A stretch of DNA of 64,000 nucleotides from Candidatus Nomurabacteria bacterium (GCA_020632135.1 JACKGC010000001.1:308241-372240); one strand, 5' to 3'. Shown: positions 11,689 through 63,901, counted from the first letter of the stretch. A program made the numbers and translations. Notes: a model not told the origin generated them from the letters alone.

Positions 11689-11695
11689 TGCAAGA

Positions 11696-24282: not shown

Positions 24283-24292
24283 CCCCTAGCTT

Positions 24293-25729: not shown

Positions 25730-25741
25730 TAAACCATTGTA

Positions 25742-28554: not shown

Positions 28555-28619
28555 TTGCCTGGGGATAGTTGGATAGCTGACCAACATTTTACCAACACCA
28601 CCATGTATAATGGTGGTGT

Positions 28620-29051
28620 ATGCGTTTTGAGGTACCACAGTTCATTGAAGTAGAGGATAAGATCTTTGGGCCATTAACCTGGCGCCAATTTCTCTACCTC
28701 GGCGGTGGTATCGGTATGTCGGTGGTCATGTTCATTACCCTCGGTTTCTTTGCCTTTCTTCTTATTGGGCTTCCAATTGCACTCCTCTCGGGAGCATTAG
28801 CCTTCTATCCGGTGAATGGTCGTTCATTCGATCATTTTCTTGAGTCAGTGATCAACTATACATTTAAACAACGACTCTACCTTTGGAAGCAAAAAGCAGA
28901 CATTGTACATAAAAACGAGACTCCCGAAGAGACCCGTCCAACCCGTCCCTACGTAACACCACCAACCCCGAGCAGGGAACAAGCACCCCAAAACGGCGTT
29001 ACCTCTATGGCGCGCCGCCTGGAATTACAAGCTCTTCAAAAGACCGAATAA
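28620..29051 (+). CDS. PrgI-family (VirB3-like) T4SS membrane protein
   Basis: The N-terminal VPQFIEVEDKIFGPLTWRQFLYLGGG followed by two TM helices is the PrgI-family pattern. It sits directly upstream of the VirB4-like genes. Confidence 0.65.
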   Translation: MRFEVPQFIEVEDKIFGPLTWRQFLYLGGGIGMSVVMFITLGFFAFLLIGLPIALLSGALAFYPVNGRSFDHFLESVINYTFKQRLYLWKQKADIVHKNETPEETRPTRPYVTPPTPSREQAPQNGVTSMARRLELQALQKTE

Positions 29052-29052
29052 C

Positions 29053-29688: not shown

Positions 29689-29706
29689 GTATAATGTAAT
29701 TTCACT

Positions 29707-31506: not shown

Positions 31507-31520
31507 TATACTTTTAGTAT

Positions 31521-32429
31521 ATGGCGGTGACAGCAACCGAAGGACAAACCCCCGAGCGCGGCGCACACCGCGCTCGCTCACGTGTTACTACTGACCAAAC
31601 CAGGCGTATCACCAGCTCTGACCGGTCTGGTTTTGGGAAGCGAAGCGTGACGCGTAATGTGCGCACCTCGTTAATGCCAGGCAATCCAAACAACACGCGT
31701 GATAGTTACCACAAGACCACCAGTGAGGAATTTAATGAAACGTATGCGCAGCAAGGCCTCCAGCCGAGCAACGTAGCAGCAAATACCCCTACTGCACCTG
31801 CCCCACCTGACCAAACTACTCGCCAGGCGTCCGTTGCATATAGTTCCACCCCGGTCGCAGCAGGTGGGGGAAGTATCAAGATCAAACGTCCTGAACGTGC
31901 GTCAGTCGCCTCCAAAACGGCAGCTCGAGCACGCGCTACCGCAGTTAACATTTGGATCTGGGCCTCGGCTGGGTTTATATGGTCAGTGTTTCAGCTACCG
32001 TTTACGATCGCCAGCTTAGTGTTTTTGGGACTCGCGTCATTTATTGACCTCCTCACAGGTATGGCGGAAGGCTCTGCAGAGGATGGGTTTTTTATAGAGA
32101 TCTTAAAAGACATGGTTGGTATTGGACTTGATATAGCGGGAGCTGTGGTTGACGCAATGTACACACTGTTTGAGATCGACCTTAGTATCCTTAATCCGTC
32201 CAATATTTTTGCTGCCTTGTGGGTGTTTTTGATTGGATACGCGTTTATACTTTTGTTGTTGATCTACCTCGGGTACCTCTTTGCGGGTCTCAAACCGCTG
32301 TCAGGAAAAGCGGCGGGTCTTAAAAAGGGAATGCTCATTCTCGCGATCATTGGCTACAGTATCCCGCTTCTCAACCTCTTCCCCTGGTTTATTCCGTGGA
32401 CTATCGCTGTGTGGCGCTACCCAAAGTAG
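31521..32429 (+). CDS. Hypothetical membrane protein with a basic, disordered N-terminus and 4-5 C-terminal TMs (cluster gene 8)
   Basis: The C-terminal half is strongly hydrophobic (VNIWIWASAGFIWSVFQLPFTIASLVFLGLASF.., ALWVFLIGYAFILLLLIYLGYLF..). The start codon is uncertain. Confidence 0.45.
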   Translation: MAVTATEGQTPERGAHRARSRVTTDQTRRITSSDRSGFGKRSVTRNVRTSLMPGNPNNTRDSYHKTTSEEFNETYAQQGLQPSNVAANTPTAPAPPDQTTRQASVAYSSTPVAAGGGSIKIKRPERASVASKTAARARATAVNIWIWASAGFIWSVFQLPFTIASLVFLGLASFIDLLTGMAEGSAEDGFFIEILKDMVGIGLDIAGAVVDAMYTLFEIDLSILNPSNIFAALWVFLIGYAFILLLLIYLGYLFAGLKPLSGKAAGLKKGMLILAIIGYSIPLLNLFPWFIPWTIAVWRYPK

Positions 32430-32565
32430 GGGAAAGTGACACTCACTCCTTATTCACACGTAATCTACAGTTTTTCAACACTGTTTCGTGAATGTTGTGC
32501 ACGAATTTCACACATTGGTGGGGTTTTCTCCGATGTCTTGGTCTTGGTCTGGTATTATTAGCAGT

Positions 32566-33537
32566 ATGAGGATTTTAACTATTGCACTGGTTTTATGTTT
32601 TGGATTTTCAGCCCATTTTGCCACGGCTCAATTCGACCAATTCACCAGCTCATTCACCAACACTGAAGTGGGTATTCACTTAATGCCACCACTGCCACAA
32701 CCAGGCCAGAGTGTGACTGCCACTTTGAGTGACTACCGTAGTGGTAGTGTTGGCTCGTCAATCGAATGGTCACTCAATGGCGAGGTGCTTGAAACTTCCC
32801 AGAACCAACGCGAGATCACCTTCACCGCTGGAGCAGATGGTCAAAGCCAACTCCTTGAGGTATTAGCAACAAACAACACTGGTGCTACTGAGTTATTTCA
32901 GAAAGTGATCACCCCACACTATCTCGACATCATCATCGAGCCACAAACCCGTGTCCCTGACTTCTACCACGGCCGTTCACTCCCCAGTATTGGGAGTCTT
33001 GTAAATGCTACAGCTTTGGTAAGTGGTGAGTACCTCAACGCGCCAGACCTAGTATATACCTGGCGGGTGGGGCAGGAGGTGATTGAGGGCGGTCCGGTGA
33101 GTGGTCGCAACAAAGTAACTTTCACCACTCCACGCGGAAAGAATTTTACCCTTTCACTCCAGGTAGCCAAACGAGACGGGACCATTATCGCCAATCGTTC
33201 GCTTGCAGTGCCCTCAGTAGCACCAGAGCTGGTCTTTTATGAGGTTAACACCCTTCATGGTATGAGTAAGGTTGCCATCAATAACTCATTGGCGCTTATC
33301 GGTAACAGCGTCGCGGTACGGGCTGAGCCATACTATCTAGATTCCCGTATCTACAACAACCCAATGGTAGCGCAGTGGAAGGTAGCTGGTGTAACCACCG
33401 AAACAGCCAACAACCCATACGAAGCTACTATTGAACGTACTGGCGCTAGTGGTAGCCGCACCTCACTCCAGTTCCATGTCCGCGATACCAAACAAGTATT
33501 ACAAGGTGCACAAGGCACGATCCAGGTAAGTTTCTAA
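32566..33537 (+). CDS. Secreted protein with about three tandem beta-sandwich-like repeats (cluster gene 9)
   Basis: Signal peptide MRILTIALVLCFGFSAHFATAQ, then three segments of ~100 aa with a recurring pattern (Y.W.V/L.G...; ..F....G....L.L.V). Start at the internal ATG 32566. Confidence 0.5.
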   Translation: MRILTIALVLCFGFSAHFATAQFDQFTSSFTNTEVGIHLMPPLPQPGQSVTATLSDYRSGSVGSSIEWSLNGEVLETSQNQREITFTAGADGQSQLLEVLATNNTGATELFQKVITPHYLDIIIEPQTRVPDFYHGRSLPSIGSLVNATALVSGEYLNAPDLVYTWRVGQEVIEGGPVSGRNKVTFTTPRGKNFTLSLQVAKRDGTIIANRSLAVPSVAPELVFYEVNTLHGMSKVAINNSLALIGNSVAVRAEPYYLDSRIYNNPMVAQWKVAGVTTETANNPYEATIERTGASGSRTSLQFHVRDTKQVLQGAQGTIQVSF

Positions 33538-33544
33538 GTATTGT

Positions 33545-34741
33545 ATGAACCGCACACTCTTCATAATCATTGGCGCCGTCCTTATTGTGGTCTTAGTTGC
33601 GGTGTGGGTCTACGTGTTGTTTTTCAGCAACAGCCCGACTAGCAACACTCCTGAATTTGCCGATCTTGATATGGGTGTAAATACTGATACTGTTGTCATT
33701 CCTGAGCCCACCATCACCACCGAGCCAACAGTGGATGTTACTGGTCCTGAGCAAATCCGCCAACTCACCACCAAGAAGGTAGTGGGATATCAAGAGGTGC
33801 GTTTCTCAACCACTTCAGCTCCGCTCGCATACTACGTGGAGTCAGGCACCGGCCACCTCTACTCGATCGACCTAAGGAGTGGGGCGGAGAAGAAGATCTC
33901 AGGCACCACCATCCCCAATACCCGCCATGCTGCTATCACTCCAAATGGTGCCTACGTAATGCTACAGTCTGGTAGCGGGCGTAGCGCTGAGTTCATTGTG
34001 GGGCAGATAAGCACCACTAGCCCGAGCCTGACCACCGGCACTATCGCAGAGGACATATCAGACTTTACCGCCGCCGCCGACAACACCTTCCTCTACGCAG
34101 TGCAAACCAATAGCGGCACTATCGCCAAGCGCTACTACCCGATCAGTGACACCAGTGAGACCCTCTTTACTGTGCCGTTCCGAGAAGCCATCATTGACTG
34201 GGGCCTCGCAGCAACCGATACACACTACGTATACCCGAAAGCAAACAGCCAACTTGAAGGATATCTCTACGCAGTTGAGAATGGGGAACTGCGCCGTTTG
34301 CCAGCGAGTGGATATGGATTGACTGCGAAAGGTACTGATACTGGTGTACTCTTTACCACCCTAACGAGCACCAACTACCAGAGTTATATTCATAACGTAC
34401 CCTCAAGCACAGTAAGTACTGCTGCTTTGTTTATACTCCCTGAGAAGTGTGTTAGCTCAGTACAATTAACAGACCTCCTTATCTGCGGCGGTAATCTACT
34501 AAGTGACACTTCGCGCCAAAGTCTTGATCAGTGGTATAAGGGTGTAACCACATACGAGGATGGCCTTTGGGAGATAGACACCATCACCGGAACTGCTTCA
34601 TACCTCATGGACATCACTAGTGCCACTGGCCGCAATGTTGATATACACTCTCTTCTGACCGGCTACGAAGACCGCTATCTCTACTTTATTAACAAAGCCG
34701 ATAGTTCACTTTGGTTGTTTGACCGTAACCCTACTAATTAA
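33545..34741 (+). CDS. Membrane-anchored protein, possibly TolB-type beta-propeller-like (cluster gene 10)
   Basis: N-terminal TM (LFIIIGAVLIVVLVAVWVYVLFF). It has PD40-like segments (GHLYSIDLRSGAEKKIS...ITPNGAYVMLQSGSG). Confidence 0.45.
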   Translation: MNRTLFIIIGAVLIVVLVAVWVYVLFFSNSPTSNTPEFADLDMGVNTDTVVIPEPTITTEPTVDVTGPEQIRQLTTKKVVGYQEVRFSTTSAPLAYYVESGTGHLYSIDLRSGAEKKISGTTIPNTRHAAITPNGAYVMLQSGSGRSAEFIVGQISTTSPSLTTGTIAEDISDFTAAADNTFLYAVQTNSGTIAKRYYPISDTSETLFTVPFREAIIDWGLAATDTHYVYPKANSQLEGYLYAVENGELRRLPASGYGLTAKGTDTGVLFTTLTSTNYQSYIHNVPSSTVSTAALFILPEKCVSSVQLTDLLICGGNLLSDTSRQSLDQWYKGVTTYEDGLWEIDTITGTASYLMDITSATGRNVDIHSLLTGYEDRYLYFINKADSSLWLFDRNPTN

Positions 34742-34747
34742 TCCAGT

Positions 34748-35527
34748 ATGAAAACACTTAAACTCCTCATCCCACACACCATCATCCTGGCGCTGCTCCT
34801 CCTGCCATTCTTAGCCGCTGCCCAAAATACCTATAAGCCACTAGTGGGTATTCCTGGGGTAAGTGGCGACCCTTCCACCCAAGGCTTCGATAGCTACATC
34901 AACGCCCTCTACGCGCTCTCAATCAGCATCGCGGCACTTCTTGCGGTCATCAAGATCGTGATCGCTGGTGTGAAGTGGATGATGACCGATATTGTTACCT
35001 CAAAAGGGGAAGCAAAAAAGGACATCCAAGCGTCACTAATTGGTTTGGTGATCGTGATAGCAGCCGTCCTTATCCTCACCGTCATCAACCCAAATCTGGT
35101 AAACGTGAATTTAAATATGCAGAAGATCGGTGTGACTGAGCAAGGAGGAGGAGGTGGAGGCTCTGGTTCAACACCAGTGTTAGATATGAATTATGTGGAG
35201 CAAGGTCAAACAACTGGCAATCTTGATACCGCAACCCTTTCCTCATCTGCCCCAACTGGTCAAGTGGAGGCTTTCTTTAAATGGTGCCACCAGCAAGGAA
35301 GAACACCTAAAAATATTGGAGGGGAGTGGCGCTGTATAGATTATGACAACCTGGAGAAAACAGTTATTTCTCAAGCTTATTGTTTAGATTCGTTGGGTGC
35401 ACAGTGTGATGTGGTTCGAAACACCCTTAAAACTAATTGCGAGGGTACCAAGAATGGTGTGTTCTTTGATGGGGAAATCGATAGTAATGGTTATAGAACA
35501 TATACTTGTATTCAGGATAGGTTTTAA
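34748..35527 (+). CDS. T4SS pilin-like (VirB2/TrbC-type) protein fused to a C-terminal Cys-rich domain
   Basis: Signal peptide ending AAAQ, then two hydrophobic helices separated by KGEAKKD (ALYALSISIAALLAVIKIVIAGVKWMM...IQASLIGLVIVIAAVLILTVI). A GGGGGGSGS linker and a ~105-aa domain with 6 Cys follow. Confidence 0.6.
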   Translation: MKTLKLLIPHTIILALLLLPFLAAAQNTYKPLVGIPGVSGDPSTQGFDSYINALYALSISIAALLAVIKIVIAGVKWMMTDIVTSKGEAKKDIQASLIGLVIVIAAVLILTVINPNLVNVNLNMQKIGVTEQGGGGGGSGSTPVLDMNYVEQGQTTGNLDTATLSSSAPTGQVEAFFKWCHQQGRTPKNIGGEWRCIDYDNLEKTVISQAYCLDSLGAQCDVVRNTLKTNCEGTKNGVFFDGEIDSNGYRTYTCIQDRF

Positions 35528-35577: not shown

Positions 35578-36303
35578 CTACCGATGCTTCCGCACAAAGT
35601 ACTCCTGCGCGATAGTGGTGAGGTTGCTCACTAGGAAGTAGAGCGCGATCGCGGCGGAAATAGACCAAGCCACGAAAGTGATCAGCACGGGCATCACATA
35701 CTTCATCTGGGTGTGCATGTTGCGCATAAAGTCAGCTTTAAGATCAGGCGCTGCTCCCTCTTCCTTTGGCGGAGGAGTAGGCATGGTGAGATTGACATGG
35801 ATGAATTGCGTAATACCGGCCCCTAGTGCCAACACAACGCTTCGCTCAGTAATATCCACCAACCCAATGAAGTGCATTGTCACATCCACGGGGGCCGCAA
35901 TGAAAGGGTAGAGTACCTCGAGGTTTATATCTGGCAGTGGCACCCCACCTCCCTTATAGACCGCCAAGTAGAGCGCAATAATGATCGGGATCTGGAGAAA
36001 TAATAGAAAGATACTCGCGAGTGGATTCATTCCTGCATCGCGGTACACTTCCATCATCGCTTGAGCTTGCTGCTGTTTATCATCCTTGTACTTCTCTTTG
36101 ATCTCCTTAAGTTTTGGCTCGATCTCCCGCATGGTCTTTTGCGTTTTAACCGCTTTGATCGAAAGGGGAAGGAGAATGGTCTTTACTAAAAGGACGGTAG
36201 CAATGATCGCCAACCCTACATCGCCGCCTGGAATGATATCAATAAAAAATACCAGTGCGTTGTAGACTGGATCAAAGAAAAACGTATGCCAAATGTAACT
36301 CAT
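35578..36303 (-). CDS. yidC: Membrane protein insertase YidC (short form)
   Basis: GLAIIATVLLVKTILLPLSIK...MREIEPKLKEIKEKYKDD...MMEVYRDAGMNP, with five TM segments. It sits in the conserved position next to rnpA. Confidence 0.85.
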   Translation of the reverse strand: MSYIWHTFFFDPVYNALVFFIDIIPGGDVGLAIIATVLLVKTILLPLSIKAVKTQKTMREIEPKLKEIKEKYKDDKQQQAQAMMEVYRDAGMNPLASIFLLFLQIPIIIALYLAVYKGGGVPLPDINLEVLYPFIAAPVDVTMHFIGLVDITERSVVLALGAGITQFIHVNLTMPTPPPKEEGAAPDLKADFMRNMHTQMKYVMPVLITFVAWSISAAIALYFLVSNLTTIAQEYFVRKHR

Positions 36304-36315
36304 AGTGCTGTCATT

Positions 36316-36648
36316 CTACGTACTTTTCACCACTTCAGCAACCGCCGCTTCTATTACAGCTTGTGCCTCATGTCGTGAGAGTTGCACAAATGTTGGCTTT
36401 GCGAGTACGATCAACACTCCTTGAAACTTCAGTTCATCGAGTTGGCGGCGGAGCACAGCGTAGATACGCCGCCGAAGCAGGTTTCGCTTCACTGCACTCT
36501 TTGCCACCTTCTTACCTACCACCACCGCCACTTTTCTGGTTGGGTAGGGGGTAGTGATGAGGGTGAGGTATGTAGTGTGGTGGCGCACACCTTGTTTAAA
36601 AAAAGCGTCAAATGCAACTTGTGAGAGACGTTCTGACTTCTTAAACAT
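36316..36648 (-). CDS. rnpA: RNase P protein component
   Basis: FKKSERL start and the RNR motif KSAVKRNLLRRRI. Start at the internal ATG 36648, so the upstream hairpin is intergenic. Confidence 0.8.
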   Translation of the reverse strand: MFKKSERLSQVAFDAFFKQGVRHHTTYLTLITTPYPTRKVAVVVGKKVAKSAVKRNLLRRRIYAVLRRQLDELKFQGVLIVLAKPTFVQLSRHEAQAVIEAAVAEVVKST

Positions 36649-36674
36649 AGCGGCACTATAGCATTTAGGTAGGT

Positions 36675-36716
36675 AAAACAAAACCACCAAGCTAGATGGC
36701 TTGGTGGTTTTGTTTT
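36675..36716 (-). terminator. Hairpin between rpmH and rnpA (attenuator or terminator)
   Basis: Perfect 18-bp stem aaaacaaaaccaccaagc / gcttggtggttttgtttt with a 6-nt loop. Confidence 0.6.
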
Positions 36717-36722
36717 AGGGTA

Positions 36723-36872
36723 TTAGCCAGCCTTCTTCACTGTCAGCTGCGCACGGCCCTTGCGACGACGCGCTTGGAGGACTTTGCGCCCAGCAGCTGA
36801 TGCAGATCGCACCAAAAAGCCGTGGGTTGTGGCACGCTTTCGCTTACTTGGTTGGTAGGTTCGTTTTGACAT
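36723..36872 (-). CDS. rpmH: 50S ribosomal protein L34
   Basis: The minus-strand translation is [49 protein letters not shown] (49 aa), below the ORF-track cutoff. This is the canonical L34 sequence and position. Confidence 0.9.
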
Positions 36873-37218
36873 ACGTGGAATTTAATACCTGGGAACTATA
36901 CAGGAATATCTAAATAATTCAATAGGGGGAGAGCTTTGGACTCAGGCTGGGTGTAGGGTACCGACTACTCATCGGCAATACGCTCACTATTCTTAAAGAA
37001 GTGATTCGAACACACCCTGGTGTTTACCTACCAGTTTGAGCATCCAAGCCCCACAAAGGTTCAAAGTACGCCAGTTTAAGAGAAATGCACTTGTTCACAC
37101 TTTATACACAGTTGCATTCTCGGTTTTAAAAATGGAGTTGGAAATTCATTCTTTTCTGAAAAAGTTTACAGTTCTTTCGAGGGAGGTATAATGCTACTCA
37201 CGTACCGACTTAGTCACC
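36873..37218. other. rpmH-dnaA intergenic region: dnaA promoter and candidate oriC part 1
   Basis: DnaA-box-like TTATACACA (37102-37110) and TTGTTCACA (37091-37099). AT-rich stretch at 37120-37170. TATAAT at 37188-37193. Confidence 0.5.
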
Positions 37219-38604
37219 ATGAATTCCATCTCACACTCAGCTTCATCAAACAGCATCGTCCATACGGAACAAGTTGATGTAAAACAACTCTGGGATGATG
37301 CATTAGTGAAGATAGAACTCTCGATCACCACTGCCAACTTCAAAACATGGTTTCGCGACACCTACATCGTCTCACTTGAAGATGGTACCGCCACTATTGG
37401 CGTACCAAGTGTATTTGTGAAGGACTGGCTCCAGGATAAATTCCAGACCATGATCTTAAAGACTCTCCGCGACCTCACCCCACACGTGCGTAGTGTTGAG
37501 TATATGGTCGCCCAGCGTAATGAACGCAAACAGGAATCAACCAAGAACCAAACCGTCAACGCCGCACTCCCACTAGAGGATTACTACATTAATAAAAGTG
37601 ACAATCTTAATCCTAAGTACTCCTTCGATACGTTTGTGGTTGGCCCATACAACGCCCTTGCACACGCAGCAGCTAAGACTGTGAGTGAAAAACCAGGTAT
37701 CACGTACAATCCACTCTTTATCTACGGTAAGACCGGTCATGGTAAGACACACCTCATCCAAGCAGTGGGGAACCAGATCAAAAAGACTGGCAAGAAAGTG
37801 TTCTACGTCACAAGTGAGCGTTTTGCAGTGGACTACTTCAATGCACTCCAAAGTGGTAGTGCTAACAGCTTCAAAGATCGCTATCGTCAATATGATGTGC
37901 TCATCATGGACGATGTACAGTTCTTAGCTACCAAAGAGAAGACTCAAGAAGAACTCTTTCACCTCTTCAATGCCCTCCACGACAACAACAAGCAAATTGT
38001 CTTCTCGAGTGATCAACACCCAGCACTTTTAAATGGTATGGAGGAGCGATTACAGTCACGGTTTGCACAAGGAATGATCGTTGATCTACCAGCACCAGAC
38101 TTAGAATCACGCGCCGCAATTCTGCGCGCGAAAGCAGCACAGAATAGCATTACTCTCAATGAAGATGTGGTGCAACACCTCGCACAGAGTATTGAAGGAA
38201 ACGTTCGTGAACTTGAGGGAGCACTTAACACCATCATGTGTCAGTCACAACTCCTTGGCCGCGCCCTTTCGATCGATGAAGTGCGCACCATCATTAAAAA
38301 CAGCTCACGTCCACGTAAGACCCTTGCTATCACCGATGTGGTTGAAAAGGTGGCTCGCTACTACGACATTGATCAGGCAAGTATTTACGAAAAAACCCGT
38401 CGGAAAGAGGTGGTGAAACCGCGCCAGATCATTATGTACATCCTGCGCGAGGATTTCCAAGTATCATACCCAGCTATTGGTAAAAAATTGGGTGGTCGTG
38501 ACCACACCACCGTTATCCACTCGTGTGAGAAGATCAAAGAGGAATTAAAGAACAGTGGGGAACTCGAGGAGGAGATCACACAAGTCCGACTCCTTCTGAA
38601 ATAA
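37219..38604 (+). CDS. dnaA: Chromosomal replication initiator DnaA
   Basis: Walker A GKTGHGKTHL, Walker B LIMDDVQF, sensor VRELEGAL, and a C-terminal DNA-binding region ending GGRDHTTVIHSCEKI. Confidence 0.95.
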   Translation: MNSISHSASSNSIVHTEQVDVKQLWDDALVKIELSITTANFKTWFRDTYIVSLEDGTATIGVPSVFVKDWLQDKFQTMILKTLRDLTPHVRSVEYMVAQRNERKQESTKNQTVNAALPLEDYYINKSDNLNPKYSFDTFVVGPYNALAHAAAKTVSEKPGITYNPLFIYGKTGHGKTHLIQAVGNQIKKTGKKVFYVTSERFAVDYFNALQSGSANSFKDRYRQYDVLIMDDVQFLATKEKTQEELFHLFNALHDNNKQIVFSSDQHPALLNGMEERLQSRFAQGMIVDLPAPDLESRAAILRAKAAQNSITLNEDVVQHLAQSIEGNVRELEGALNTIMCQSQLLGRALSIDEVRTIIKNSSRPRKTLAITDVVEKVARYYDIDQASIYEKTRRKEVVKPRQIIMYILREDFQVSYPAIGKKLGGRDHTTVIHSCEKIKEELKNSGELEEEITQVRLLLK

Positions 38605-38627
38605 ACACCGCCAGAGCGGTGTTTTTT
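38603..38627 (+). terminator. dnaA terminator hairpin
   Basis: aaacaccgc caga gcggtgttt followed by ttt. Confidence 0.7.
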
Positions 38628-38928
38628 AAAGTTTTTTTGTTTGTGGAAAAGATCGGGGAGAGAAGTGTACAAGGCTAGAACATCCCGTTTATGTGTCTCC
38701 AACAACCGCTTGGTAGGGTATGGATAAAGCTGATTTTTATACACAATTACAGTTGTATTGTACTCAGTGTAAATAAGTTTCCCCAACCATACCCACATAA
38801 CTCCCAACCTAACTCACACTAACCGCACAAATACACACATAAATTTTCATTGTAGTACGCCATAGATTCGACTTTTGCACACTTCCACAGCACTAATAAT
38901 AGAGAGTAAAATAGATTACAATATAGAT
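38628..38928. other. dnaA-dnaN intergenic region: candidate oriC part 2
   Basis: Boxes within 1 mismatch of TTATCCACA or its complement: TGTGGAAAA (38642-38650), TATGGATAA (38719-38727) and TTATACACA (38737-38745). An AT-rich tract lies at 38890-38928. Confidence 0.55.
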
Positions 38929-40023
38929 ATGGAGATAACTATTCCACATGATAAGTTGGTTGAAGCACTCGAACTCATTGGACGCATTAGCACTAAACAT
39001 GTCACACTTCCGATACTACAGTGTATTCGTTTAGAAGCGAAAGGGACCAGTATCACCCTTCAGGCAACCAACTTAGAGATCAGTATGGAAGTGCTACTCA
39101 CTGGTACTGTAGTAGAAGAGGGGGTGGTAGCAGTTCCAGGTCAGATCTTCCTGCAGAGTATTCAGTTTGTTGCACAAAAAGATATTACTTTACGTACCGA
39201 GGATCAAGTTCTACTTCTTGAAACTTCGCATACCAATACTTCGATAAAGACATTCACCACTGATGAGTTTCCCACCCTTAAACAGCTTCAAGGTGAGGAA
39301 CTTAAACTCCAAGGAGCGATGTTTGCGAATGGTATTAAAGCGGTGGCATTTGCAGCCTCACAAACCTCAATTAAACCTGAGCTTGGGAGTGTGTTTATAC
39401 AGCAAAAGAAGGAACACTCTCTCACATTTGTGGCAACTGATTCGTTCCGTTTAATGGAGAAGACGGTCTCACAAAAAGGGTTAGTGTTCGATCAGTCGAT
39501 CATGATCCCACAAAAGAATGCCATTGAGTTAGCGCGGGTATGTGACACTGTGCGAGAGGACCCTGTGTTGGTGATGAGTGAGAATCAATGCGCTTTACGG
39601 TTCCCAACTGGTGTATATGTCTCATCACGACTAGTGGCTGGTAGTTTTCCAGATTACGTGCAGATCATTCCAAAAGAGTTTGTGACCCATGTAACAGTCC
39701 TAAAAGATGACCTTCTCCGCTCATTTAAGAAGACAAATATCTTTTTGAATAAGTTTCGTCAAGTCTCACTGATGGTGACCGACAAAAACCTTACCATATC
39801 ATCACAGAATAACGAGGTGGGGCACACAACCGATACAGTGCGAGCTCAGGTTGAAGGGGAAGAGTTGTCACTTAATTTCAATCAACAGTACATAATGGAC
39901 CCACTCACTCACGTGAATGATGATTCGGTGAAAATGAGTTTTGCTGGAATTGGCCGAGCGATGATCATACAAGGAGTGGCAGATAAGAGTTTGCGTTACT
40001 TAGTAATGCCAATGAATAAGTAA
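38929..40023 (+). CDS. dnaN: DNA polymerase III beta sliding clamp
   Basis: 365 aa with a three-domain clamp pattern (LELIGRISTKHVTLPILQCIRLEA...FVATDSFRL...MPMNK), in the position after dnaA. Start at the internal ATG 38929. Confidence 0.9.
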   Translation: MEITIPHDKLVEALELIGRISTKHVTLPILQCIRLEAKGTSITLQATNLEISMEVLLTGTVVEEGVVAVPGQIFLQSIQFVAQKDITLRTEDQVLLLETSHTNTSIKTFTTDEFPTLKQLQGEELKLQGAMFANGIKAVAFAASQTSIKPELGSVFIQQKKEHSLTFVATDSFRLMEKTVSQKGLVFDQSIMIPQKNAIELARVCDTVREDPVLVMSENQCALRFPTGVYVSSRLVAGSFPDYVQIIPKEFVTHVTVLKDDLLRSFKKTNIFLNKFRQVSLMVTDKNLTISSQNNEVGHTTDTVRAQVEGEELSLNFNQQYIMDPLTHVNDDSVKMSFAGIGRAMIIQGVADKSLRYLVMPMNK

Positions 40024-43922: not shown

Positions 43923-43924
43923 GA

Positions 43925-43967
43925 GAATGAAAAAGGCCGGAAGCGAAGCTTCCGGCCTTTTTCATTC
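43925..43967. terminator. Bidirectional terminator hairpin
   Basis: Perfect 20-bp stem gaatgaaaaaggccggaagc / gcttccggcctttttcattc with a 3-nt loop. Confidence 0.8.
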
Positions 43968-44227
43968 TACATCTCATCTATATCATCAAAACTATCGAAA
44001 TCTACATCTTCAGCATCAGCCTCAAGTTCGTCATCGTCATCGTCCTCCTCTTCCTCCACTTCTTCATCCTCCTCGCTTTCATTAATATGCCCAAATCCTT
44101 CTACTTCATCATCAGAATCAACATTGCTGTCACCTACCTCATCAAGGAGATCATCATCCAAAGATGCGTCTTCATCGTCCGGATTTTCTTCCAACTCTTC
44201 TTCATCGTCAGTTCGAAAGTAGATCAT
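43967..44227 (-). CDS. Small, extremely acidic protein (86 aa)
   Basis: More than half of the residues are D or E (e.g. EEDEEVEEEEDDDDDELEADAEDVDFDSFDDIDEM). A TATAAT lies upstream and a terminator downstream. Confidence 0.45.
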   Translation of the reverse strand: MIYFRTDDEEELEENPDDEDASLDDDLLDEVGDSNVDSDDEVEGFGHINESEEDEEVEEEEDDDDDELEADAEDVDFDSFDDIDEM

Positions 44228-44305: not shown

Positions 44306-44785
44306 TTACTGGTTCCTGCCGTAATGTGCAAGGCACGTTATGCCGACTGCGATGGCATCATATTCATCATCCAGCGCTTTTAGCGGTACATTTGGTACCA
44401 GACGTTGTACCATATCGATGACCGCGTTTTTATCACTTTTACCATAGCCAGTAACAGCTATTTTTATCTCCTGTGGGCCAAATTCATACACACGACAGTT
44501 GTGAGTTTGAGCTAAGTACATGAGGATGCCACGTGCCTGCGCTACTCCCATAGCCGTTTTTTGGTTTTTATTGAAAAAGAGGGTTTCGATAGCAAGGGTA
44601 TCGGGGGAGTGGGTAGTGAGGAGCGCCTCAAAGTGATCTCCGATCACTTTGAGGCGCTCCGATAACGGAGCAGTCTTATCTGTTTCTATGCAATCAGAAT
44701 ACAGCAGGTGTTCACTGCCGTTCTTAAATTCCATGATTGCGACACCAAGTCGGTCGTAGCCTGGGTCTACTGCTAGTACACGCAT
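44306..44785 (-). CDS. ruvC: Holliday junction resolvase RuvC
   Basis: MRVLAVDPGYDRLGVAIME at the N-terminus and the ...DDEYDAIAVGI catalytic acidic residues. Confidence 0.85.
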   Translation of the reverse strand: MRVLAVDPGYDRLGVAIMEFKNGSEHLLYSDCIETDKTAPLSERLKVIGDHFEALLTTHSPDTLAIETLFFNKNQKTAMGVAQARGILMYLAQTHNCRVYEFGPQEIKIAVTGYGKSDKNAVIDMVQRLVPNVPLKALDDEYDAIAVGITCLAHYGRNQ

Positions 44786-44843
44786 ATGTTAAGTATAGCT
44801 AGAGCAGCGGAAAATAAAAGTATCCGATACGGAGGTTGATGTC

Positions 44844-45017
44844 GTAAAACTAAACCGCTTCTGCTCAGCCGAGTGCTCCGTGCCGAGATAGCTATGGTCG
44901 CCTGCACAACGCAAAAAGCCAAAATTGCATTCGCTCAAACAGTGACTTTTTGTTGTTCCGGCTCCCTAGCTATCTACCATCTCTCCGTAAGACTTCACAG
45001 AAGTGGTTTGGTTTTAC
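44844..45017. repeat. Intergenic foldback element E5 (20-bp closing stem, ~134-nt interior)
   Basis: Stem gtaaaactaaaccgcttctg / cagaagtggtttggttttac has 18 Watson-Crick pairs plus 2 pairs that are G-U only in a plus-strand RNA. There is an inner stem agatagcta/tagctatct. The interior carries tatggtcgcctgc, the complement of the GCAGGCGACCATA box. Confidence 0.6.
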
Positions 45018-46776: not shown

Positions 46777-46924
46777 ATTCCAGACGATAACTCTCTAAGC
46801 AACTTTGTATGCGTTGCGAGGGGTTCTATGGCACTCACCACTGAGTGAGAGCGCTGTATACTTACTTAGCGCGGCATGCGACTTTCAATGCGGAAGCTTT
46901 GCTTAGAGAGTTATATTCTGGAAT
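46777..46924. repeat. Intergenic foldback element E6 (26-bp closing stem with a 2-nt internal mismatch)
   Basis: Stem attccagacgataactctctaagcaa / ttgcttagagagttatattctggaat around a 96-nt interior containing ctcac..gtgag and gcgct..agcgc hairpins. Confidence 0.6.
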
Positions 46925-52458: not shown

Positions 52459-52514
52459 GGTGGGCGGACAAATAAAAAAACGGCGGATGCCGTTTTTTTA
52501 TTTGTCCGCCCACC
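52459..52514. terminator. Perfect 26-bp palindrome (bidirectional terminator) incorporating the 3' end of tRNA-Lys
   Basis: ggtgggcggacaaataaaaaaacggc ggat gccgtttttttatttgtccgcccacc. The right arm overlaps the tRNA acceptor 3' strand. Confidence 0.75.
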
Positions 52515-52577
52515 AGGGCTCGAACCTGGGACCCTCAGCTTAAAAGGCTGCTGCTCTACCGACTGAGCTATGGGCGG
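52505..52577 (-). tRNA. tRNA-Lys (anticodon UUU)
   Basis: Manual cloverleaf: acceptor CCGCCCA/TGGGCGG, D arm GCTC-AGTCGGTA-GAGC, anticodon loop CTTTTAA, T arm CCAGG-TTCGAGC-CCTGG, discriminator A. CCA is not encoded. Confidence 0.85.
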
Positions 52578-52616: not shown

Positions 52617-52697
52617 GTCCGCAGCCATTTAAGGCTTAAAAGGCGTTCGACAGTCTCCCAGACTGTCTCACCTCCACAGACTGAGCTATGGGCGGAG
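52617..52697 (-). pseudogene. Decayed tRNA-Lys-like copy
   Basis: The first 17 nt (CCGCCCATAGCTCAGTC) are identical to tRNA-Lys. It shares GCCTTTTAAGC and a GCGGACAAA 3' end. An inserted hairpin (GACAGTCT GGG AGACTGTC) is present, and there is no canonical T arm or 7-bp acceptor. Confidence 0.55.
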
Positions 52698-53247: not shown

Positions 53248-54733
53248 GCACAGGTGTGTACAGTGGTTACTTTGTGGTGGATTACTAGGAGTCGGGTTTT
53301 TATTGCCGCAGTTTTGGATCCTTGGATTCACTGGTGTGGCGTACTGTATCTATCTCCTTGAGCAGCCAGCGAGTGTACGAAGTAAAGCGTTTGGCGTGTG
53401 GTTGGCGTGGGTAGTAAAGTCTGGTTGTGCGGTGTGGTGGATGTGGTCCGTGTACCCGATCGAGTGGCTCCCTGCCTCTCTTGGACAGATACAAATGCTT
53501 TTGATCGGATTTTCATGGCTTATGACAGCAGTAAGTCTCGGGGCGGGAGCGCTCGTGCTTGTGTCCGGGAGAGTTGGATTTACGGCTTTGGGTAAATTAC
53601 CAAAATGGTCATACCACTTCTTGATCTATCCACTACTATGGGTCATTGGTGAAATGGTGGGGTCGCTACTGTTTTCAATATTTTTCTATGGTCCAGGCGG
53701 TACCATCGGCACAGACTTTAGTTTTGGGTACGTCGGGTACCTCATTGCTCAACACCAGTGGTTCATACAGGTGGCACAACTCGCTGGTGTGTACGGGCTC
53801 TCTATCCTCATAGTGGTACTAGCTGGCGGAGTAGTGTGGTGGATGCAAACTAACACAGTGAAACCCTCGTGGCTCGTGGCTATAGGGTTGTCTTTGTACC
53901 TGACGGGATTCGTTGCGTGGCCAACACCAACAGTTTCACCTGTAAATAATGGATATGAAGTGGCGTTTATTGAGACTAGTTTTGAATCGCGCATGTTCTT
54001 GAGTGAGGATGGGGTGCGGGCACAACGGATGGCCCTTGAGGACGCCATGAATGCGGCGTTGGCATCAGGAGCAACATACATCATCCTGCCTGAGGATAGT
54101 CGCTACTTCGACCAAAGTCGCTCGCCCAGTGCGACTCGGCTACTGTTTGCGTTGCGACACGATGACCCAGAAGTAGTGATCGTTGATAGTGCGCGCGCGG
54201 TTGTGGGTGGTCAGACTGTCCAGCAGGCATTTGTATACAATGGTCCACAAGAGACGGTCGATCGTTTTCATAAACGCTACCTTGTTCCACAGGGGGAATA
54301 TATTTCAAGCATTTATATAAAACTATTTGAGCTTTTTGGCATGCATGATTCACTCAAATATCTTGGACAAGACATCTCATATGAAGTGGGGCCATGGACC
54401 AACCAAAGTACTGGCGCAAAGAATATCCCCGCCATCCTATTTTGCTTTGAGAGTTTTGCACCCAAAGGTATGAAAGTACTACAGGCAGAGCGTCCTGACA
54501 TGCCGTTTACGGTCCATATCGCATCTCATGCTTGGTTCCATGAACCTAATTCACTCTGGTCACAAATGGAAGCGATGCTGAAGGTGCAGGTCATCTGGAC
54601 GCAGCAGTATTTGGTGAGCGTTGGTAATATGGTGGAGAGTAACATATACACTCCACAAGGTCAGGTGCTTGATGGAGAAGTGTTTGAAACGGGGGAGCAG
54701 TGGCAGGTAAAACTGACTACACTTCCTCGCTAG
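53234..54733 (+). CDS. lnt: Apolipoprotein N-acyltransferase-like (polytopic N-domain plus CN-hydrolase domain)
   Basis: About 7 TM segments, then nitrilase-superfamily triad contexts IILPEDS (E), HKRYLVPQGEY (K) and LFCFESF (C). The start is uncertain. Confidence 0.65.
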   Translation: MVWYKHRCVQWLLCGGLLGVGFLLPQFWILGFTGVAYCIYLLEQPASVRSKAFGVWLAWVVKSGCAVWWMWSVYPIEWLPASLGQIQMLLIGFSWLMTAVSLGAGALVLVSGRVGFTALGKLPKWSYHFLIYPLLWVIGEMVGSLLFSIFFYGPGGTIGTDFSFGYVGYLIAQHQWFIQVAQLAGVYGLSILIVVLAGGVVWWMQTNTVKPSWLVAIGLSLYLTGFVAWPTPTVSPVNNGYEVAFIETSFESRMFLSEDGVRAQRMALEDAMNAALASGATYIILPEDSRYFDQSRSPSATRLLFALRHDDPEVVIVDSARAVVGGQTVQQAFVYNGPQETVDRFHKRYLVPQGEYISSIYIKLFELFGMHDSLKYLGQDISYEVGPWTNQSTGAKNIPAILFCFESFAPKGMKVLQAERPDMPFTVHIASHAWFHEPNSLWSQMEAMLKVQVIWTQQYLVSVGNMVESNIYTPQGQVLDGEVFETGEQWQVKLTTLPR

Positions 54734-56018
54734 ATGTGCTTGGTATCGAGAGTTCTTGCAATAAGGTTGTTACCGTGGCGGCATCACTCCAGGGGGTCTT
54801 GGTTCCTTGTGGACCCATAATGTATGGATCGGTCCCTTTGCCTGAAATGAGTACGTACCCGTCTTCACTGCAGTGGGCAATTGCGCTTCTGATAGCCTCA
54901 GTACGATCCATGATCACCCTAACCGGCGCCTCTTCACTCATCCCTTTTTGCATATCGTGAACGATCTTCATCGGATCTTCATCGTATGGATCCTCATTAG
55001 TGAGAATGATCTGGTCGCAGAACTTCTCGGCAATCGCACCCATTTCTGGTCGCTTCCAAGTGTCACGTCCACCGCCAGTATTGCCGAGTACACAGACTTT
55101 GTATTTATCTGGAAACGCCTCATAGAGCTTGGTGAGCGAGTCCGGTGTGTGAGCGTAATCAACCACTGCAGTGATGCGTTTGGTAGCGTCGACGGGGGAC
55201 TCAAAGGTTTCAACTCTACCCTTAAGCGGCGGGAGCTCATGTAACGCTTTTTGGATCGTGGTGAGTGGAATATCAAGCGCACGCGCCATCGTGATCGCAG
55301 CGAGGGTGTTGTAGACATTAAAGAGTCCTATTAGAGGCACGCGCATGGTTGTGTTACCAAAAATAAGACTAATGCTGTCTTTGTGTAGTGAGTAGAGGGT
55401 GAGGTCTTTTAGGGAGTAGGGGAGTTTCTGTTCGACGGAGAAGTCAAGAAATGCGGGGCCATGCTCATTGTCGATGTTGGCTACTAGATAGCGAGGTCGC
55501 TTCGGCGAATCCGCTACCGCCTGAGCAATGGAAAGCTTCGCAGCTTTGTACTTCTCGAATGAGCCATGTGACTCAATGTGCTCAGGGGCGAGGTTGGTGA
55601 AGATGAGCGCATCGATGTCGATGAAGCGGTGGCGAAACTGTTTCGCTCCTTCAGAGGTCATTTCGATGACGGCGTGGGTACAGCCAGCATGTACTGCATC
55701 GCGCAAAAATTTTTGCACAAAAAAACGTCCCGGCATGGTCATTTTAAAGAGGTTGCGCTCGGTGTGACCGTCGATCGAGAATTGAATGGTGGAGAGGGTC
55801 GCGACTTTATGTCCGCCAGCACGCAGGAGTTGGCCAAGGATCTCGGTGGTTGATGACTTACCCTTGGTTCCTGTTACGCCGATGACCATGATGTCACGTG
55901 AGGGGTGACGATAGCGCAGCGCACCAAGTAGCGCCAAGAGGAAGTGATAAGGGGGTTGTAAGCGGCAGAAGATACTTCTTGGAATGATCTTCTTAAGTAG
56001 CTGTCGTACGGTATCCAT
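54717..56018 (-). CDS. murE: Mur ligase family protein (MurE-like)
   Basis: VIGVTGTKGKSST (P-loop), IEMTSEG, FTNLAPEHIESHGSFEKYKAAK, GNTGGGRDTWKRPEMG and TNEDPYDEDP in place of the DNPR motif. Start at the internal ATG 56018. Confidence 0.65.
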   Translation of the reverse strand: MDTVRQLLKKIIPRSIFCRLQPPYHFLLALLGALRYRHPSRDIMVIGVTGTKGKSSTTEILGQLLRAGGHKVATLSTIQFSIDGHTERNLFKMTMPGRFFVQKFLRDAVHAGCTHAVIEMTSEGAKQFRHRFIDIDALIFTNLAPEHIESHGSFEKYKAAKLSIAQAVADSPKRPRYLVANIDNEHGPAFLDFSVEQKLPYSLKDLTLYSLHKDSISLIFGNTTMRVPLIGLFNVYNTLAAITMARALDIPLTTIQKALHELPPLKGRVETFESPVDATKRITAVVDYAHTPDSLTKLYEAFPDKYKVCVLGNTGGGRDTWKRPEMGAIAEKFCDQIILTNEDPYDEDPMKIVHDMQKGMSEEAPVRVIMDRTEAIRSAIAHCSEDGYVLISGKGTDPYIMGPQGTKTPWSDAATVTTLLQELSIPSTSSEEV

Positions 56019-56069
56019 ATAAAATAAGTATAAGCTGAATTGTATTTTGCTGCACGTGTATGGTGAAAG

Positions 56070-56149
56070 AGGTGGTGCACTACAGTAGCGAAACATCCGC
56101 AGCGACCATACCCGGAGCGAGGACGTTGAGTCTCTGTAGTACACCACCT
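56070..56149. repeat. Intergenic foldback element B (16-bp stem, 48-nt conserved loop)
   Basis: Stem aggtggtgcactacag / ctgtagtacaccacct has one C-A pair, which is G-U on the minus strand. The loop tagcgaaacatccgcagcgaccatacccggagcgaggacgttgagtct is 44/48 identical to the loop of element A. Confidence 0.75.
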
Positions 56150-56165
56150 ATTTGCGGTAGTAACT

Positions 56166-56741: not shown

Positions 56742-56781
56742 AGTGTATGCATTGTACCTGAGATACGCTTCCTATCCAAAG

Positions 56782-56879
56782 CAATCAACCATAGGCCTGT
56801 TTTTCGCACACTCCGCTGTTGCGGACTCTCTCGAGCACGTAACCCCCGCGGATGCTCAAAACAGGCCTATGGTTGATTG
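56782..56879. repeat. Intergenic foldback element Y (22-bp perfect stem, 54-nt interior)
   Basis: Stem caatcaaccataggcctgtttt / aaaacaggcctatggttgattg. The reverse complement of the interior shares TCCGCGGGG and CGGAGYGTGYGA with element X. Confidence 0.7.
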
Positions 56880-56947
56880 ATTGACCAAAACCCTTGCCTT
56901 TTTGGGCTTCCTACGGTACAGTAGGCCCACTCAAATTTATAGTAAAT

Positions 56948-57217
56948 ATGCCAATCACTAAAGGAGCAGCCAAGGCCCATCGTCAGTCAGAGCGCAAGAA
57001 GGTGTTCAACATCCGTCGTAAGAGCGCAATGAAGGACGCTGAGAAGGCCATCGCAAAGGCAGTAGCCGCTGGAGATGAGAAGAAGGCAAAAGAACTTCTT
57101 CCAACCGCGTACAAAGCGATTGACAAGGCAGCCAAGCGTGGTGTCATCAAAGACAACACTGCGGCACGCAAGAAGTCTCGCATCACTGCCCGCGTGAAGA
57201 TCACCGCGAAGAAATAA
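56948..57217 (+). CDS. rpsT: 30S ribosomal protein S20
   Basis: MPITKGAAKAHRQSERKKVFNIRRKSAMK... is the typical S20 N-terminus (89 aa). Start at the internal ATG 56948. Confidence 0.9.
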   Translation: MPITKGAAKAHRQSERKKVFNIRRKSAMKDAEKAIAKAVAAGDEKKAKELLPTAYKAIDKAAKRGVIKDNTAARKKSRITARVKITAKK

Positions 57218-57250
57218 ATAAAACCGCCCATCAAATGGGCGGTTTTATTT
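57216..57250. terminator. Bidirectional terminator hairpin
   Basis: aaataaaaccgccca tcaaa tgggcggttttattt, a perfect 15-bp stem. Confidence 0.8.
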
Positions 57251-57266
57251 ATTCTTCAATAATAGG

Positions 57267-63221: not shown

Positions 63222-63231
63222 TAAAAAGATC

Positions 63232-63320
63232 CATCCGTACCTGATGATGAGCGTCCGCGGGGACGGAGTGCTAAAGCTGCGCTGTGAACATCGGAGCGTG
63301 TGAAGAATCAGGTACGGATG
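63232..63320. repeat. Intergenic foldback element X (14-bp perfect stem, extendable to 19; 61-nt interior)
   Basis: Stem catccgtacctgat / atcaggtacggatg. The interior gatgagcgtccgcggggacggagtgctaaagctgcgctgtgaacatcggagcgtgtgaaga shares boxes with Y (reverse complement) and with A/B (GAACATCGGAGCG). Confidence 0.7.
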
Positions 63321-63584
63321 AATCTGAATAATTTAAAAACTATGTTTACCTTAACTACAAAAGATCTTTCAGAAACAGTCACTCTTAAGAATCTGCCGAC
63401 ACTACGTCAGACTTTCTTTGTCGGCTCAGTCGTTATCATGCTTGGGTATGTGCTCGAGGATGTCTACCCAATTACCCACTACTTGCCGTTGTTACCAGCG
63501 ATCGGCCTGATGGTCTCGGCGCTGACGGGCTTTTGTCCCATGGCGTACTTCTTGCAGAAGCTGCCATGGAACAAGGTGGAATAG
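63318..63584 (+). CDS. DUF2892 (YgaP-like) small membrane protein
   Basis: Two TM helices and the C-terminal motif LTGFCPMAYFL typical of DUF2892. The start is uncertain (63318 or 63342). Confidence 0.6.
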   Translation: MNLNNLKTMFTLTTKDLSETVTLKNLPTLRQTFFVGSVVIMLGYVLEDVYPITHYLPLLPAIGLMVSALTGFCPMAYFLQKLPWNKVE

Positions 63585-63615
63585 AAAGAGCGCGGCCTTT
63601 GGCCGCGCTCTTTCT
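63583..63615. terminator. Bidirectional terminator hairpin
   Basis: agaaagagcgcggcc ttt ggccgcgctctttct, a perfect 15-bp stem. Confidence 0.8.
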
Positions 63616-63901
63616 ATAGTTTCGCAAATCGTCCGATCAATTTACTCATTTTATTACCCCGCCCAGTGAGGCCATAGTAGTGCACACGAGAATCATGTGG
63701 GCACGAAATACGCTTGATCAGTTTCTCTGCCTCCAGTTCGTGAAGGCGACTCGAGAGGGTCGCGGTGTTAATGGTGAGTGATTCTTGCAGGTCTGAAAAA
63801 CCGCGCGGCTTGTCGGCAAGAGCGTGCAAAATCACTAACATATGTCGCTTACTAAGGAATGTAAGGATCTTAGTGGCAGGGCAGACAGCACCTTTTTTCA
63901 T
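63614..63901 (-). CDS. HxlR-family winged-helix transcriptional regulator
   Basis: CPATKILTFLSKRHMLVILHAL...RGFSDLQESL.INTATLSSRLHELEAEKLIKR......VHYYGLTGRG. The start may be 63967. Confidence 0.7.
   Translation of the reverse strand: MKKGAVCPATKILTFLSKRHMLVILHALADKPRGFSDLQESLTINTATLSSRLHELEAEKLIKRISCPHDSRVHYYGLTGRGNKMSKLIGRFAKL

Follow-up and report, generated by a model that had tools for sequence, protein, structure and literature searches.

The foldback elements described here, A and B, are two long-stemmed hairpin repeats found in a 64,000-nucleotide stretch of DNA (GCA_020632135.1 JACKGC010000001.1:308241-372240; hereafter the window) from Candidatus Nomurabacteria bacterium. Judged from its sequence, the source appears to be a Parcubacteria-type bacterium of the candidate phyla radiation (CPR), and homologues of the RuvA and NYN-domain proteins of the window are labelled Kaiserbacteria, Parcubacteria, and Patescibacteria. 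Both elements belong to a family, F1, with three copies in the window (A, B, and a third copy, X) and at least nine more in relatives. As far as Rfam and literature searches show, F1 is a small undescribed family of hairpin repeats, and as far as the searches reached it appears to be limited to a clade of Parcubacteria-type CPR bacteria. Tentatively, and with slightly less than even confidence, A and B are read as a structure-dependent, low-copy mobile or selfish foldback repeat, the arms of which would be kept perfect and the loops flipped by intrastrand switching.

The three copies of the window are listed below, with scores from the covariance model described later:

A, 11897-11986, plus strand: F1 copy with a 21-bp perfect basal stem (11897-11917 / 11966-11986) and a 48-nt core (11918-11965); 90.3 bits on the plus strand and 13.1 bits on the minus strand.
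B, 56070-56149, plus strand: F1 copy with a 16-bp stem containing one mismatch and a 48-nt core (56086-56133); 89.2 bits.
X, 11762-11849, minus strand: F1 copy with a 21-22-bp stem, of which two pairs are G.T on the minus strand, and with a 40-nt core, TAGCGAAGCATTTGCAGGCGAAGCCGAAACCGCTGAGTCT; 67.3 bits.

Element A is composed of AGGAGGGTGAAAGTCGCTGCG, a 48-nt loop reading TAGGGAAACATCC...GGACGTTGATTCT on the plus strand, and CGCAGCGACTTTCACCCTCCT, while B is composed of AGGTGGTGCACTACAG, a 48-nt loop, and CTGTAGTACACCACCT. The initial annotation of this DNA had described long stems of 21 and 16 bp around 48-nt loops that differ at four positions, and both the sequence and the alignment of the direct repeat common to A and B (50 nt, 11917-11966 and 56085-56134, 92% identical, 4 differences) bear this out. 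It was equally right that the sole non-Watson-Crick pair in the 16-bp stem of B is C/A when read on the plus strand and G.T when read on the minus strand; if two further mismatches are allowed, this stem stretches to 56066-56153. The statement that the stems share no sequence is correct for most of the length of the arms but not for the 6-7 loop-proximal base pairs, which are alike in A (CGCTGC-G) and B (CACTACAG). Further copies have TTGTR/TAG...TCT/YACAA in common at the stem-loop junction (the slashes mark the junction). None of this is expected by chance: a 40-nt core pattern occurs only twice in the window against 0.00 expected from shuffles, the folding z-scores versus shuffles are -8.8 for A and -5.2 for B, and the window holds six perfect stems of at least 14 bp around loops of 20-130 nt against 0.02 expected in simulated sequence.

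Loci of relatives were obtained through RuvA and NYN homologues and one metagenome scan, and those that carry F1 are the following:

L025 (RuvA 91%), ruvA-murE: short form, flipped with respect to B.
L039/L038 (NYN 90%), rpsO-NYN: one short antisense copy and one long sense copy.
L036 (NYN 90%), rpsO-NYN: long form without a closing stem.
L040 (NYN 88%), rpsO-NYN: long form, antisense.
L041 (NYN 87%), rpsO-NYN: two copies.
L030 and L033, within a hemK/prmC-like gene: variant edges, in frame.

The family thus spans three loci (rpsO-NYN, ruvA-murE, and hemK), and two further core families accompany it. All F1 copies have in common the edges 5'-(G)TAGNGAARYAT...GYTGAKTCT(C)-3', between which the centre is exchangeable (20-60 nt) and occurs in short and long forms; the 48-nt short form resembles an 86-nt long form that has lost an internal segment. 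All of 10 cores are headed by GTAG or ATAG, and in 8 of them the preceding base is G, giving GTAG. The arms are 14-24 bp long, usually 19-24 bp, near-perfect in most copies, and unrelated between copies save for 5-7 loop-proximal bases; across all core families the stem lengths cluster at 19-24 bp.

A covariance model trained on six F1 copies and searched over 158 kb gave 90, 89, and 67 bits for A, B, and X on one strand and 10-16 bits on the other. Among copies that were not used for training, those of L030 and L033 reached 49 and 45 bits, the long forms with a closing stem (L039, L040, and L041) 25, 23, and 22 bits, and the stemless long form of L036 only 11 bits; beyond the listed copies, nothing in the 158 kb rose above the level of generic hairpins. 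A search of this kind had been proposed by the initial annotation; the further copies have differing arms, and not the identical stems of a plain duplication. The metagenome scan, made with CCGNAGCGACNATACCCGNAGCGA, returned one true copy (L030) and two GC-rich chance matches. Fifteen matches of genome contigs to the 18-mer ACCCGGAGCGAGGACGTT were rejected as chance, with no identity beyond the 18-mer, which the closest relative itself mismatches once. Viral contigs gave no match to the core patterns of F1, F2, and F3 (the last two being introduced below) or to the arms used as spacers, and a scan for half-sites left by decayed copies gave too much noise to be of use (119 matches versus 81 expected, 22 true halves included). 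Locus L040 also has, at 1525-1629, a 24-bp perfect stem with a 57-nt core whose reverse complement opens with TAGACC, carries CTTGATTCG near its 3' end, and has GCGGAAGCCG...GGCTGAG in common with X; from its sequence, it is possibly a further branch of an F1 superfamily.

The 48-nt loop is itself structured. On the strand that reads TAG, and from the outside inward, the basal stem is followed by a 2x2 internal loop, two base pairs (G3.U46 and N4-K45), a tandem G.A (G5 A6 / G43 A44), an inner helix of 6-7 bp (7-13/36-42) with a conserved A10/C39 mismatch, and an apical module. Covariation was assessed on an alignment of the arms and edges of 10 F1 copies, with column shuffles and slid partners as controls. 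Paired cells amount to 93.5%, versus 70.9% in column shuffles and 34-48% with slid partners, and 16 of the 20 pairs change on both sides; none of 500 shuffles came up to this. The inner pairs covary as well, namely 4-45 (C-G, G.U, U.G), 8-41 (A-U, G-C, G.U), and 12-37 and 13-36 (C-G, U-A), and the centre of the long form is an additional hairpin with two compensatory changes in L036. It is important to note that covariation in perfect DNA palindromes may also stem from arm-to-arm correction at the DNA level, and that it is by itself no proof of an RNA.

Imperfect pairs of the transition type are G.U on the strand that reads TAG and CATCC in nine cases; the single case on the other strand is in B. 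This bias holds also in copies that lie antisense to their neighbours; the folded strand is therefore set by the element and not by the host gene. According to the initial annotation, the G-U version would always lie on the strand complementary to the CATCCG reading, a rule that only B follows, that the nine other cases contradict, and that the annotation's own element X breaks if it corresponds to 11762-11849. When the G.U pairs were tallied by the sense strand of the host gene the result was mixed, and that version of the RNA argument was dropped. The same annotation had proposed selection on structure as opposed to recent duplication. That it is no plain recent duplication, and that pairing is kept amid sequence change, is supported by the ten copies, whereas an RNA fixed to one strand of a host transcript is hard to hold because the core is flipped at the same site in close relatives (L025 and the rpsO-NYN loci).

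The flips themselves, and signs of a turnover of the elements, are as follows. The core of B and that of its L025 counterpart are identical at 45 of 48 positions and inverted relative to ruvA and murE. At rpsO-NYN, L036 and L039 carry the long form in the sense orientation and L040 carries it antisense, with 85-95% identity. Short and long forms, as well as both orientations, are mixed among positions and lineages: the core of A is 92% identical to those of B and of the L025 copy, at another locus, while its identity to copies that share its rpsO-NYN site is 85%, 73%, and 48%. An assembly artefact is an unlikely explanation for the flips, because the arms are shorter than usual assembly k-mers and because NCBI, JGI, and Logan assemblies all show the orientation differences. 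Flips are seen only between species-level relatives.

Two sites are filled in some genomes and empty in others, in both cases with foldbacks of types other than F1. One of them involves the core family F3, which has two copies in the window:

56779-56882, minus strand: F3 foldback with a 22-bp perfect stem (56782-56803 / 56858-56879) and a 54-nt core, GAGCATCCGCGG...GAGTGTGCGA.
63227-63325, plus strand: second F3 foldback, whose 19-bp stem has a single C/A mismatch on the plus strand, with a 61-nt core, GATGAGCGTCCGCGGGGA...TGAACATCGGAGCGTGTGAAGA.

The first lies in the rpsT-ruvA spacer, immediately upstream of the predicted ruvA promoter and its -35, and is flanked by two predicted divergent promoters, rpsT being transcribed the opposite way; L025, L026, and L027 keep the -10 block of this ruvA promoter. 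The spacer holds F3 in the window and in L025 (375-463), while in L027 it has only 11 nt at that place. A possible TTTGG stands on both sides of the F3 copy when it is compared with the empty L027 site, although part of it lies within the extended stem. At the second site, a foldback with a 24-bp stem follows the M14 peptidase gene in L040, which retains its own terminator beside it, while the window and L041 have only a terminator. At both sites, the two arms are extra DNA.

Other foldbacks lie inside hemK/prmC-like genes. In L030 and L033, the F1 variant is placed, with the frame kept, in a hemK-like methyltransferase between its LIPRPETE and LDLCAGSG motifs, and this unit is 94% conserved versus 85-91% for the flanking coding sequence. 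At the same protein region, L034 and L035 carry another core family, F2 (CGTAGGGGCTTGCGGTCGGGGGGTGCCTGCGG), whose core is identical at 32 of 32 positions between the two, with unrelated arms and differing reading frames, in host genes that are 55% identical at the protein and 59% at the DNA level. All four genes read through the foldback without a stop, and several more hemK homologues have a translated core or other insertions at the same spot. Database protein P0121 begins at an ATG within the L030 loop. In the homologues P0123, P0125, and P0127 (columns ~95-115), a second insertion hot spot before LIPRPETE encodes LPAGQAGS or a doubled version of it, which when back-translated resembles a short GC-rich palindrome; P0123 has PAGH where the F2 loop would be.

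If these units are selfish or mobile DNA, they would spread only rarely to new places and would survive only in the tolerant spots of a compact genome, such as post-stop spacers, promoter spacers, and flexible protein loops read in frame. The conserved part would be what a putative structure-specific enzyme recognises on the single-stranded form, in a manner comparable to that of HUH/Y1 transposases or integron integrases, which read hairpins. Once a copy had been placed, its arms would keep each other perfect through intrastrand template switching, and the same process would flip the loop, so that the orientation to neighbouring genes would be arbitrary. The presence of near-perfect arms beside an imperfect conserved core suggests this kind of arm-to-arm correction at the DNA level; F3 at 56779-56882 keeps its perfect stem despite its place between predicted divergent promoters. 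Template switching at quasi-palindromes is a known candidate for the correction of arms, and it would also yield flips. A folded strand defined by the element is easier to reconcile with a single-stranded intermediate of mobilisation, or with an RNA made independently, than with a cis-regulatory structure in mRNA, and the presence/absence differences, the in-frame copies, and a phylogeny that does not follow position point toward mobility.

Several observations weigh against mobility. No transposase, HUH/Y1, relaxase, or reverse transcriptase was found in a Pfam scan of 20 open reading frames (ORFs) of the window or among the precomputed domains of the fetched loci. The copy number is low, with three F1 copies in the 64 kb of the window, and three relatives, over ~57 kb, have four copies, every one of them at rpsO-NYN; this site has one or two F1 copies in all five lineages examined, which also suits a conserved local function. 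The 32/32 identity of the F2 cores may equally reflect very strong purifying selection in place, and hence a function for the host. There is no clear target-site duplication, and none recurs at A, B, and L030. In nine assemblies of the window strain, the element is invariant, with a single orientation and the filled state, so that no ongoing activity is seen. Neither are the arms accounted for: they are not repeated elsewhere in the window, and an origin by copying from nearby flanks was discarded, as local alignments to 400 nt on each side gave no consistent signal. The arm-making step has no known precedent, and the origin of the unique arms is unexplained in all readings. Insertion of the core into pre-existing terminators was likewise rejected as a source of arms for the two sites with an empty state to compare, since there the relative has no palindrome or the terminator is kept beside the foldback, and since the arms are without the A/T tracts of the terminators of this genome.

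The most serious competitor of the mobile repeat, though on balance an unlikely one, is a structured RNA with a function for the host. The elements would then be hairpins in host mRNAs or spacers, cut by RNase III or bound by a protein such as the NYN-domain RNase, and would either give a stable small RNA of ~50-90 nt or control the neighbouring genes. The perfect duplex of ~20 bp would provide two turns of A-form helix as a cleavage substrate, with the tandem G.A junction as a binding site; at 16-24 bp, the stems would be long enough for an RNase III substrate, which takes ~20 bp or more of uninterrupted double-stranded RNA. A comparable case is E. coli, where the rpsO-pnp leader holds an RNase III hairpin. 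In favour of this explanation are a covariation that reaches the imperfect inner helix, which is evidently not homogenised by DNA palindrome correction, and the gathering of G.U pairs on one strand. It is also favoured by stem lengths of 19-24 bp in all core families, by the retention of one or two copies between rpsO and NYN in five lineages despite strong streamlining, and by hemK cores that are more conserved than the surrounding gene. Orientation tells both ways: the TAG-reading strand is sense to the neighbours in 7 of 12 F1 copies and antisense in 5, and at orthologous sites both orientations occur with equally intact cores, which counts against a host RNA. The position of F3 between predicted divergent promoters, the cost of a dsRNA cleavage site within an essential-looking coding sequence, a kinship among elements that does not track position, and the lack of any Rfam match also count against it.

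A further, unlikely reading is a new kind of hairpin element of which only the top would be heritable. Either a mobile core would build a fresh inverted repeat of ~20 bp at each insertion, or else the copies would be dispersed, non-array kin of the stem-loop guide RNAs that CPR bacteria have and would serve a hypothetical hairpin-binding protein. We know of no described precedent for the building of a fresh, unique inverted repeat at each insertion.

A DNA-level site, which might act as a cruciform or as a core bound in double-stranded form through tandem 9-mers by a nucleoid, replication, or recombination protein, is very improbable. An orientation independent of the neighbouring genes, copies in non-coding spacers that include a promoter spacer, and arms that are perfect even where no transcription is predicted would all suit it, as would the tandem 9-mer CCGNAGCGA (spacing 15 nt) in the cores of A and B. 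However, this 9-mer is present in the short form only: it is missing from X, from both L039 and both L041 copies, and from the long forms, and it resembles a by-product of the internal deletion of the long form. Moreover, a G.U bias on one strand is not expected from binding to double-stranded DNA, and the in-frame gene copies have no obvious role as DNA sites. The elements follow no replication-strand rule either. A and X are inverted neighbours, and the dnaA/GC-skew switch lies between A and B, which are therefore on opposite sides of the probable origin and yet have their cores on the same strand.

In published work, the architecture is most closely paralleled by the stem-loop units (tigRNAs) of the TIGR-Tas systems (TIGR, tandem interspaced guide RNA) found in CPR bacteria. 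In these units, the palindromic stems vary from one to another and only the box-proximal stem bases are kept, the loop sometimes has a hairpin, and the units, known from Patescibacteria, can lie in frame in coding sequence at a disordered protein region; they form arrays beside or within a tas (Nop-domain) gene (PMC12045711; bioRxiv 10.64898/2026.09.09.750476). F1 resembles them in its variable stems with conserved loop-proximal bases, its in-frame copies, and its CPR host, and UGAUGA/GAA-like motifs with faint sub-threshold C/D-box matches add to the likeness. It would thus be conceivable, yet it is highly doubtful, that F1 copies are orphan relatives of these units, that is, guide-like RNAs for a Nop-domain (Tas-like) protein encoded elsewhere. 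F1 units are single and dispersed, with no tas/Nop gene among the 20 scanned ORFs of the window or the precomputed Pfam domains of the fetched loci, and the in-frame copies are in hemK-like genes, not in tas. The F1 loop shows 92-94% conservation among copies and across species, its two halves pair in a helix that covaries, and two variable spacers of 8-12 nt are lacking; the stem base carries no CUU, and a symmetric pair of box C and box D is missing. As F1 is without arrays, a tas gene, paired variable spacers, and the CUU/UG boxes, membership is not supported.

Plain segmental duplication or chance similarity without any special structure is already refuted and of negligible probability: the window has only two 48-nt cores, as such an origin would allow, but their arms are unrelated while the cores are 92% identical, the expectation by chance is 0.00, and at least 10 members in relatives covary.

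Comparison with other known systems agrees with the statement of the initial annotation that the motif is no named ribozyme, riboswitch, or sRNA, as no Rfam family reached its threshold. Over the whole window, Rfam 15 gave only one tRNA at the gathering threshold, and with permissive settings the surroundings of A, B, L030, F3, and the long form gave generic hairpin/miRNA and faint sub-threshold matches only, such as Hammerhead_1 (11.6 bits versus 34) and C/D-box families (10-17 versus 38-50). These faint matches arise only because of a UGAUGAG...GAA motif. The hammerhead, box C/D, and k-turn readings of this motif were rejected, by hand and with Rfam, since the core positions misfit and there is no three-way junction; a k-turn is formable only by some F3 copies. 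No description was found in the literature on repeats of CPR, Patescibacteria, and Parcubacteria or on the core sequences.

Among mobile elements, presence/absence polymorphism (two filled/empty sites) and dispersed copies (three F1 loci) recall miniature inverted-repeat transposable elements (MITEs). However, these have conserved terminal inverted repeats, while the arms of A, B, X, and the relatives share at most 5-7 loop-proximal bases. A match to a MITE, which the initial annotation had considered as a replacement for its own interpretation, is not supported in this respect, the arms not being conserved among copies. The Rickettsia palindromic elements (RPE) are hairpin repeats of ~100 bp, both intergenic and in frame in genes, that are regarded as selfish; F1 resembles them in its in-frame read-through. 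In contrast, RPE copies are alike over their full length, arms included, while F1 arms are unrelated, and the host lineage is unrelated as well. Repetitive extragenic palindromes (REPs) and REPINs are short imperfect palindromes with a GTAG head, often in inverted pairs, which are recognised as single-stranded hairpins by RAYT (Y1/HUH) transposases. The GTAG head and the inverted pair X/A are similar in F1, but the conservation is reversed, since in REPINs the arms are conserved and the loop varies. REPs reach tens to hundreds of copies, against three F1 copies per 64 kb, and no RAYT/Y1_Tnp gene is present among the 20 scanned ORFs.

The integron attC site also favours structure over sequence, one strand folding as the substrate of a tyrosine recombinase, with conserved boxes at the stem base. 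F1 lacks the R''/R' sites (RYYYAAC / GTTRRRY), its stem base being free and its top conserved, and no integron integrase or cassette array accompanies it; the sole nearby tyrosine recombinase (9155-10069) is XerD-like, syntenic in relatives, and not adjacent to the elements. In chloroplasts and elsewhere, loops bounded by inverted repeats flip repeatedly among close relatives through strand switching at the arms. This hairpin-loop flip-flop is a mutational process that accounts for the flips of F1 but not for its conserved core or its spread. Nor is an inverton supported, as all nine independent assemblies of one strain show the same orientation.

With regard to the genomic setting, A sits between the rpsO terminator hairpin (11690-11736) and the NYN-domain gene, which is followed by pnp, and X is inverted relative to A, 48 nt upstream of it. 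B sits between the ruvA stop codon and the predicted promoter of the murE-like gene; both genes are on the minus strand, and the B core is oriented antisense to them. The longest murE-like ORF (54717-56147, minus) begins at a GTG within B, while the conserved start is near 56018. The second F3 foldback begins 6 nt past the stop codon of an AcrB-like gene. In total, the window holds about seven long-stem foldbacks of at least three core families, and the remaining features of this kind are:

11881-11891, plus strand: possible F1 remnant, TTTGTGTAGCG, directly upstream of the 5' arm of A.
46777-46924, no strand assigned: foldback with a core unassigned to any family, a 26-bp stem with 2 mismatches, and a 96-nt loop, in the ruvB-pilB spacer.
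2816-2866, 7677-7719, 12645-12685, 43924-43968, 44620-44660, 52459-52514, 57213-57253, and 63581-63617: long gene-end palindromes.

The sequence TTTGTGTAGCG equals the part of an F1 stem next to the loop together with the initial 5 nt of the core, and takes part in a hairpin (11821-11891); it is possibly the leftover of an older F1 copy. The gene-end palindromes, perfect and with stems of 17-26 bp and loops of 3-6 nt, mostly have A/T tracts and are presumably bidirectional terminators, far longer than usual. In addition, the ruvC-yebC spacer (44786-45013) holds a complex nested foldback of ~200 nt that has the 13-mer GCAGGCGACCATA in common with the B core and gave no match with Rfam or the F1 model.

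Some other observations concern the rest of the window. Genes of the origin type lie at 35578-40023, with yidC and rnpA on the minus strand, dnaA at 37219-38604, and dnaN at 38875-40023, and the cumulative GC skew has its minimum near 38 kb; nearly all genes at 10-35 kb are encoded on the plus strand and would meet a fork from the probable origin head-on. Some 12 co-directional genes at 23368-35527, mostly without Pfam hits, include those for a PrgI-family protein (28620-29051) and a VirB4/TraG-type ATPase (29707-31506), and from these domains they appear to form a type IV secretion or conjugation-like cluster. A perfect direct repeat of 34 nt (10684-10717 and 11080-11113), a terminator-like hairpin reading TTGCCACTCCCGCCCCGGCGGGAGTTTGTTTTAC, surrounds a small ORF (10813-11079) and adjoins the XerD-like recombinase gene; between this gene and rpsO the gene content varies, L036, L040, and L041 being different. 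Finally, a 26-bp perfect palindrome overlaps the 3' end (the low-coordinate edge) of the sole called tRNA gene (52505-52577, minus), of which 23 of 25 bases are repeated 118 nt away at 52672-52696 (CTCCACAGACTGAGCTATGGGCGGA), a segment not called as a tRNA.

CPR/Patescibacteria have small, compact genomes for which descriptions of repeats or non-coding RNAs are few; here, units related to the foldbacks of the window even lie in frame within a housekeeping gene. A conserved top on a free stem has a single similar case among those found, the stem-loop TIGR units, in which the origin of the stem is likewise unexplained. If F1 is mobile, it would involve an unknown way of making inverted repeats; if it is an RNA, it would represent a new class of structured RNA with a ready-made processing stem. 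For the annotation of CPR genomes, these foldbacks call for caution, as they create spurious ORFs, shifted starts, and longer proteins.

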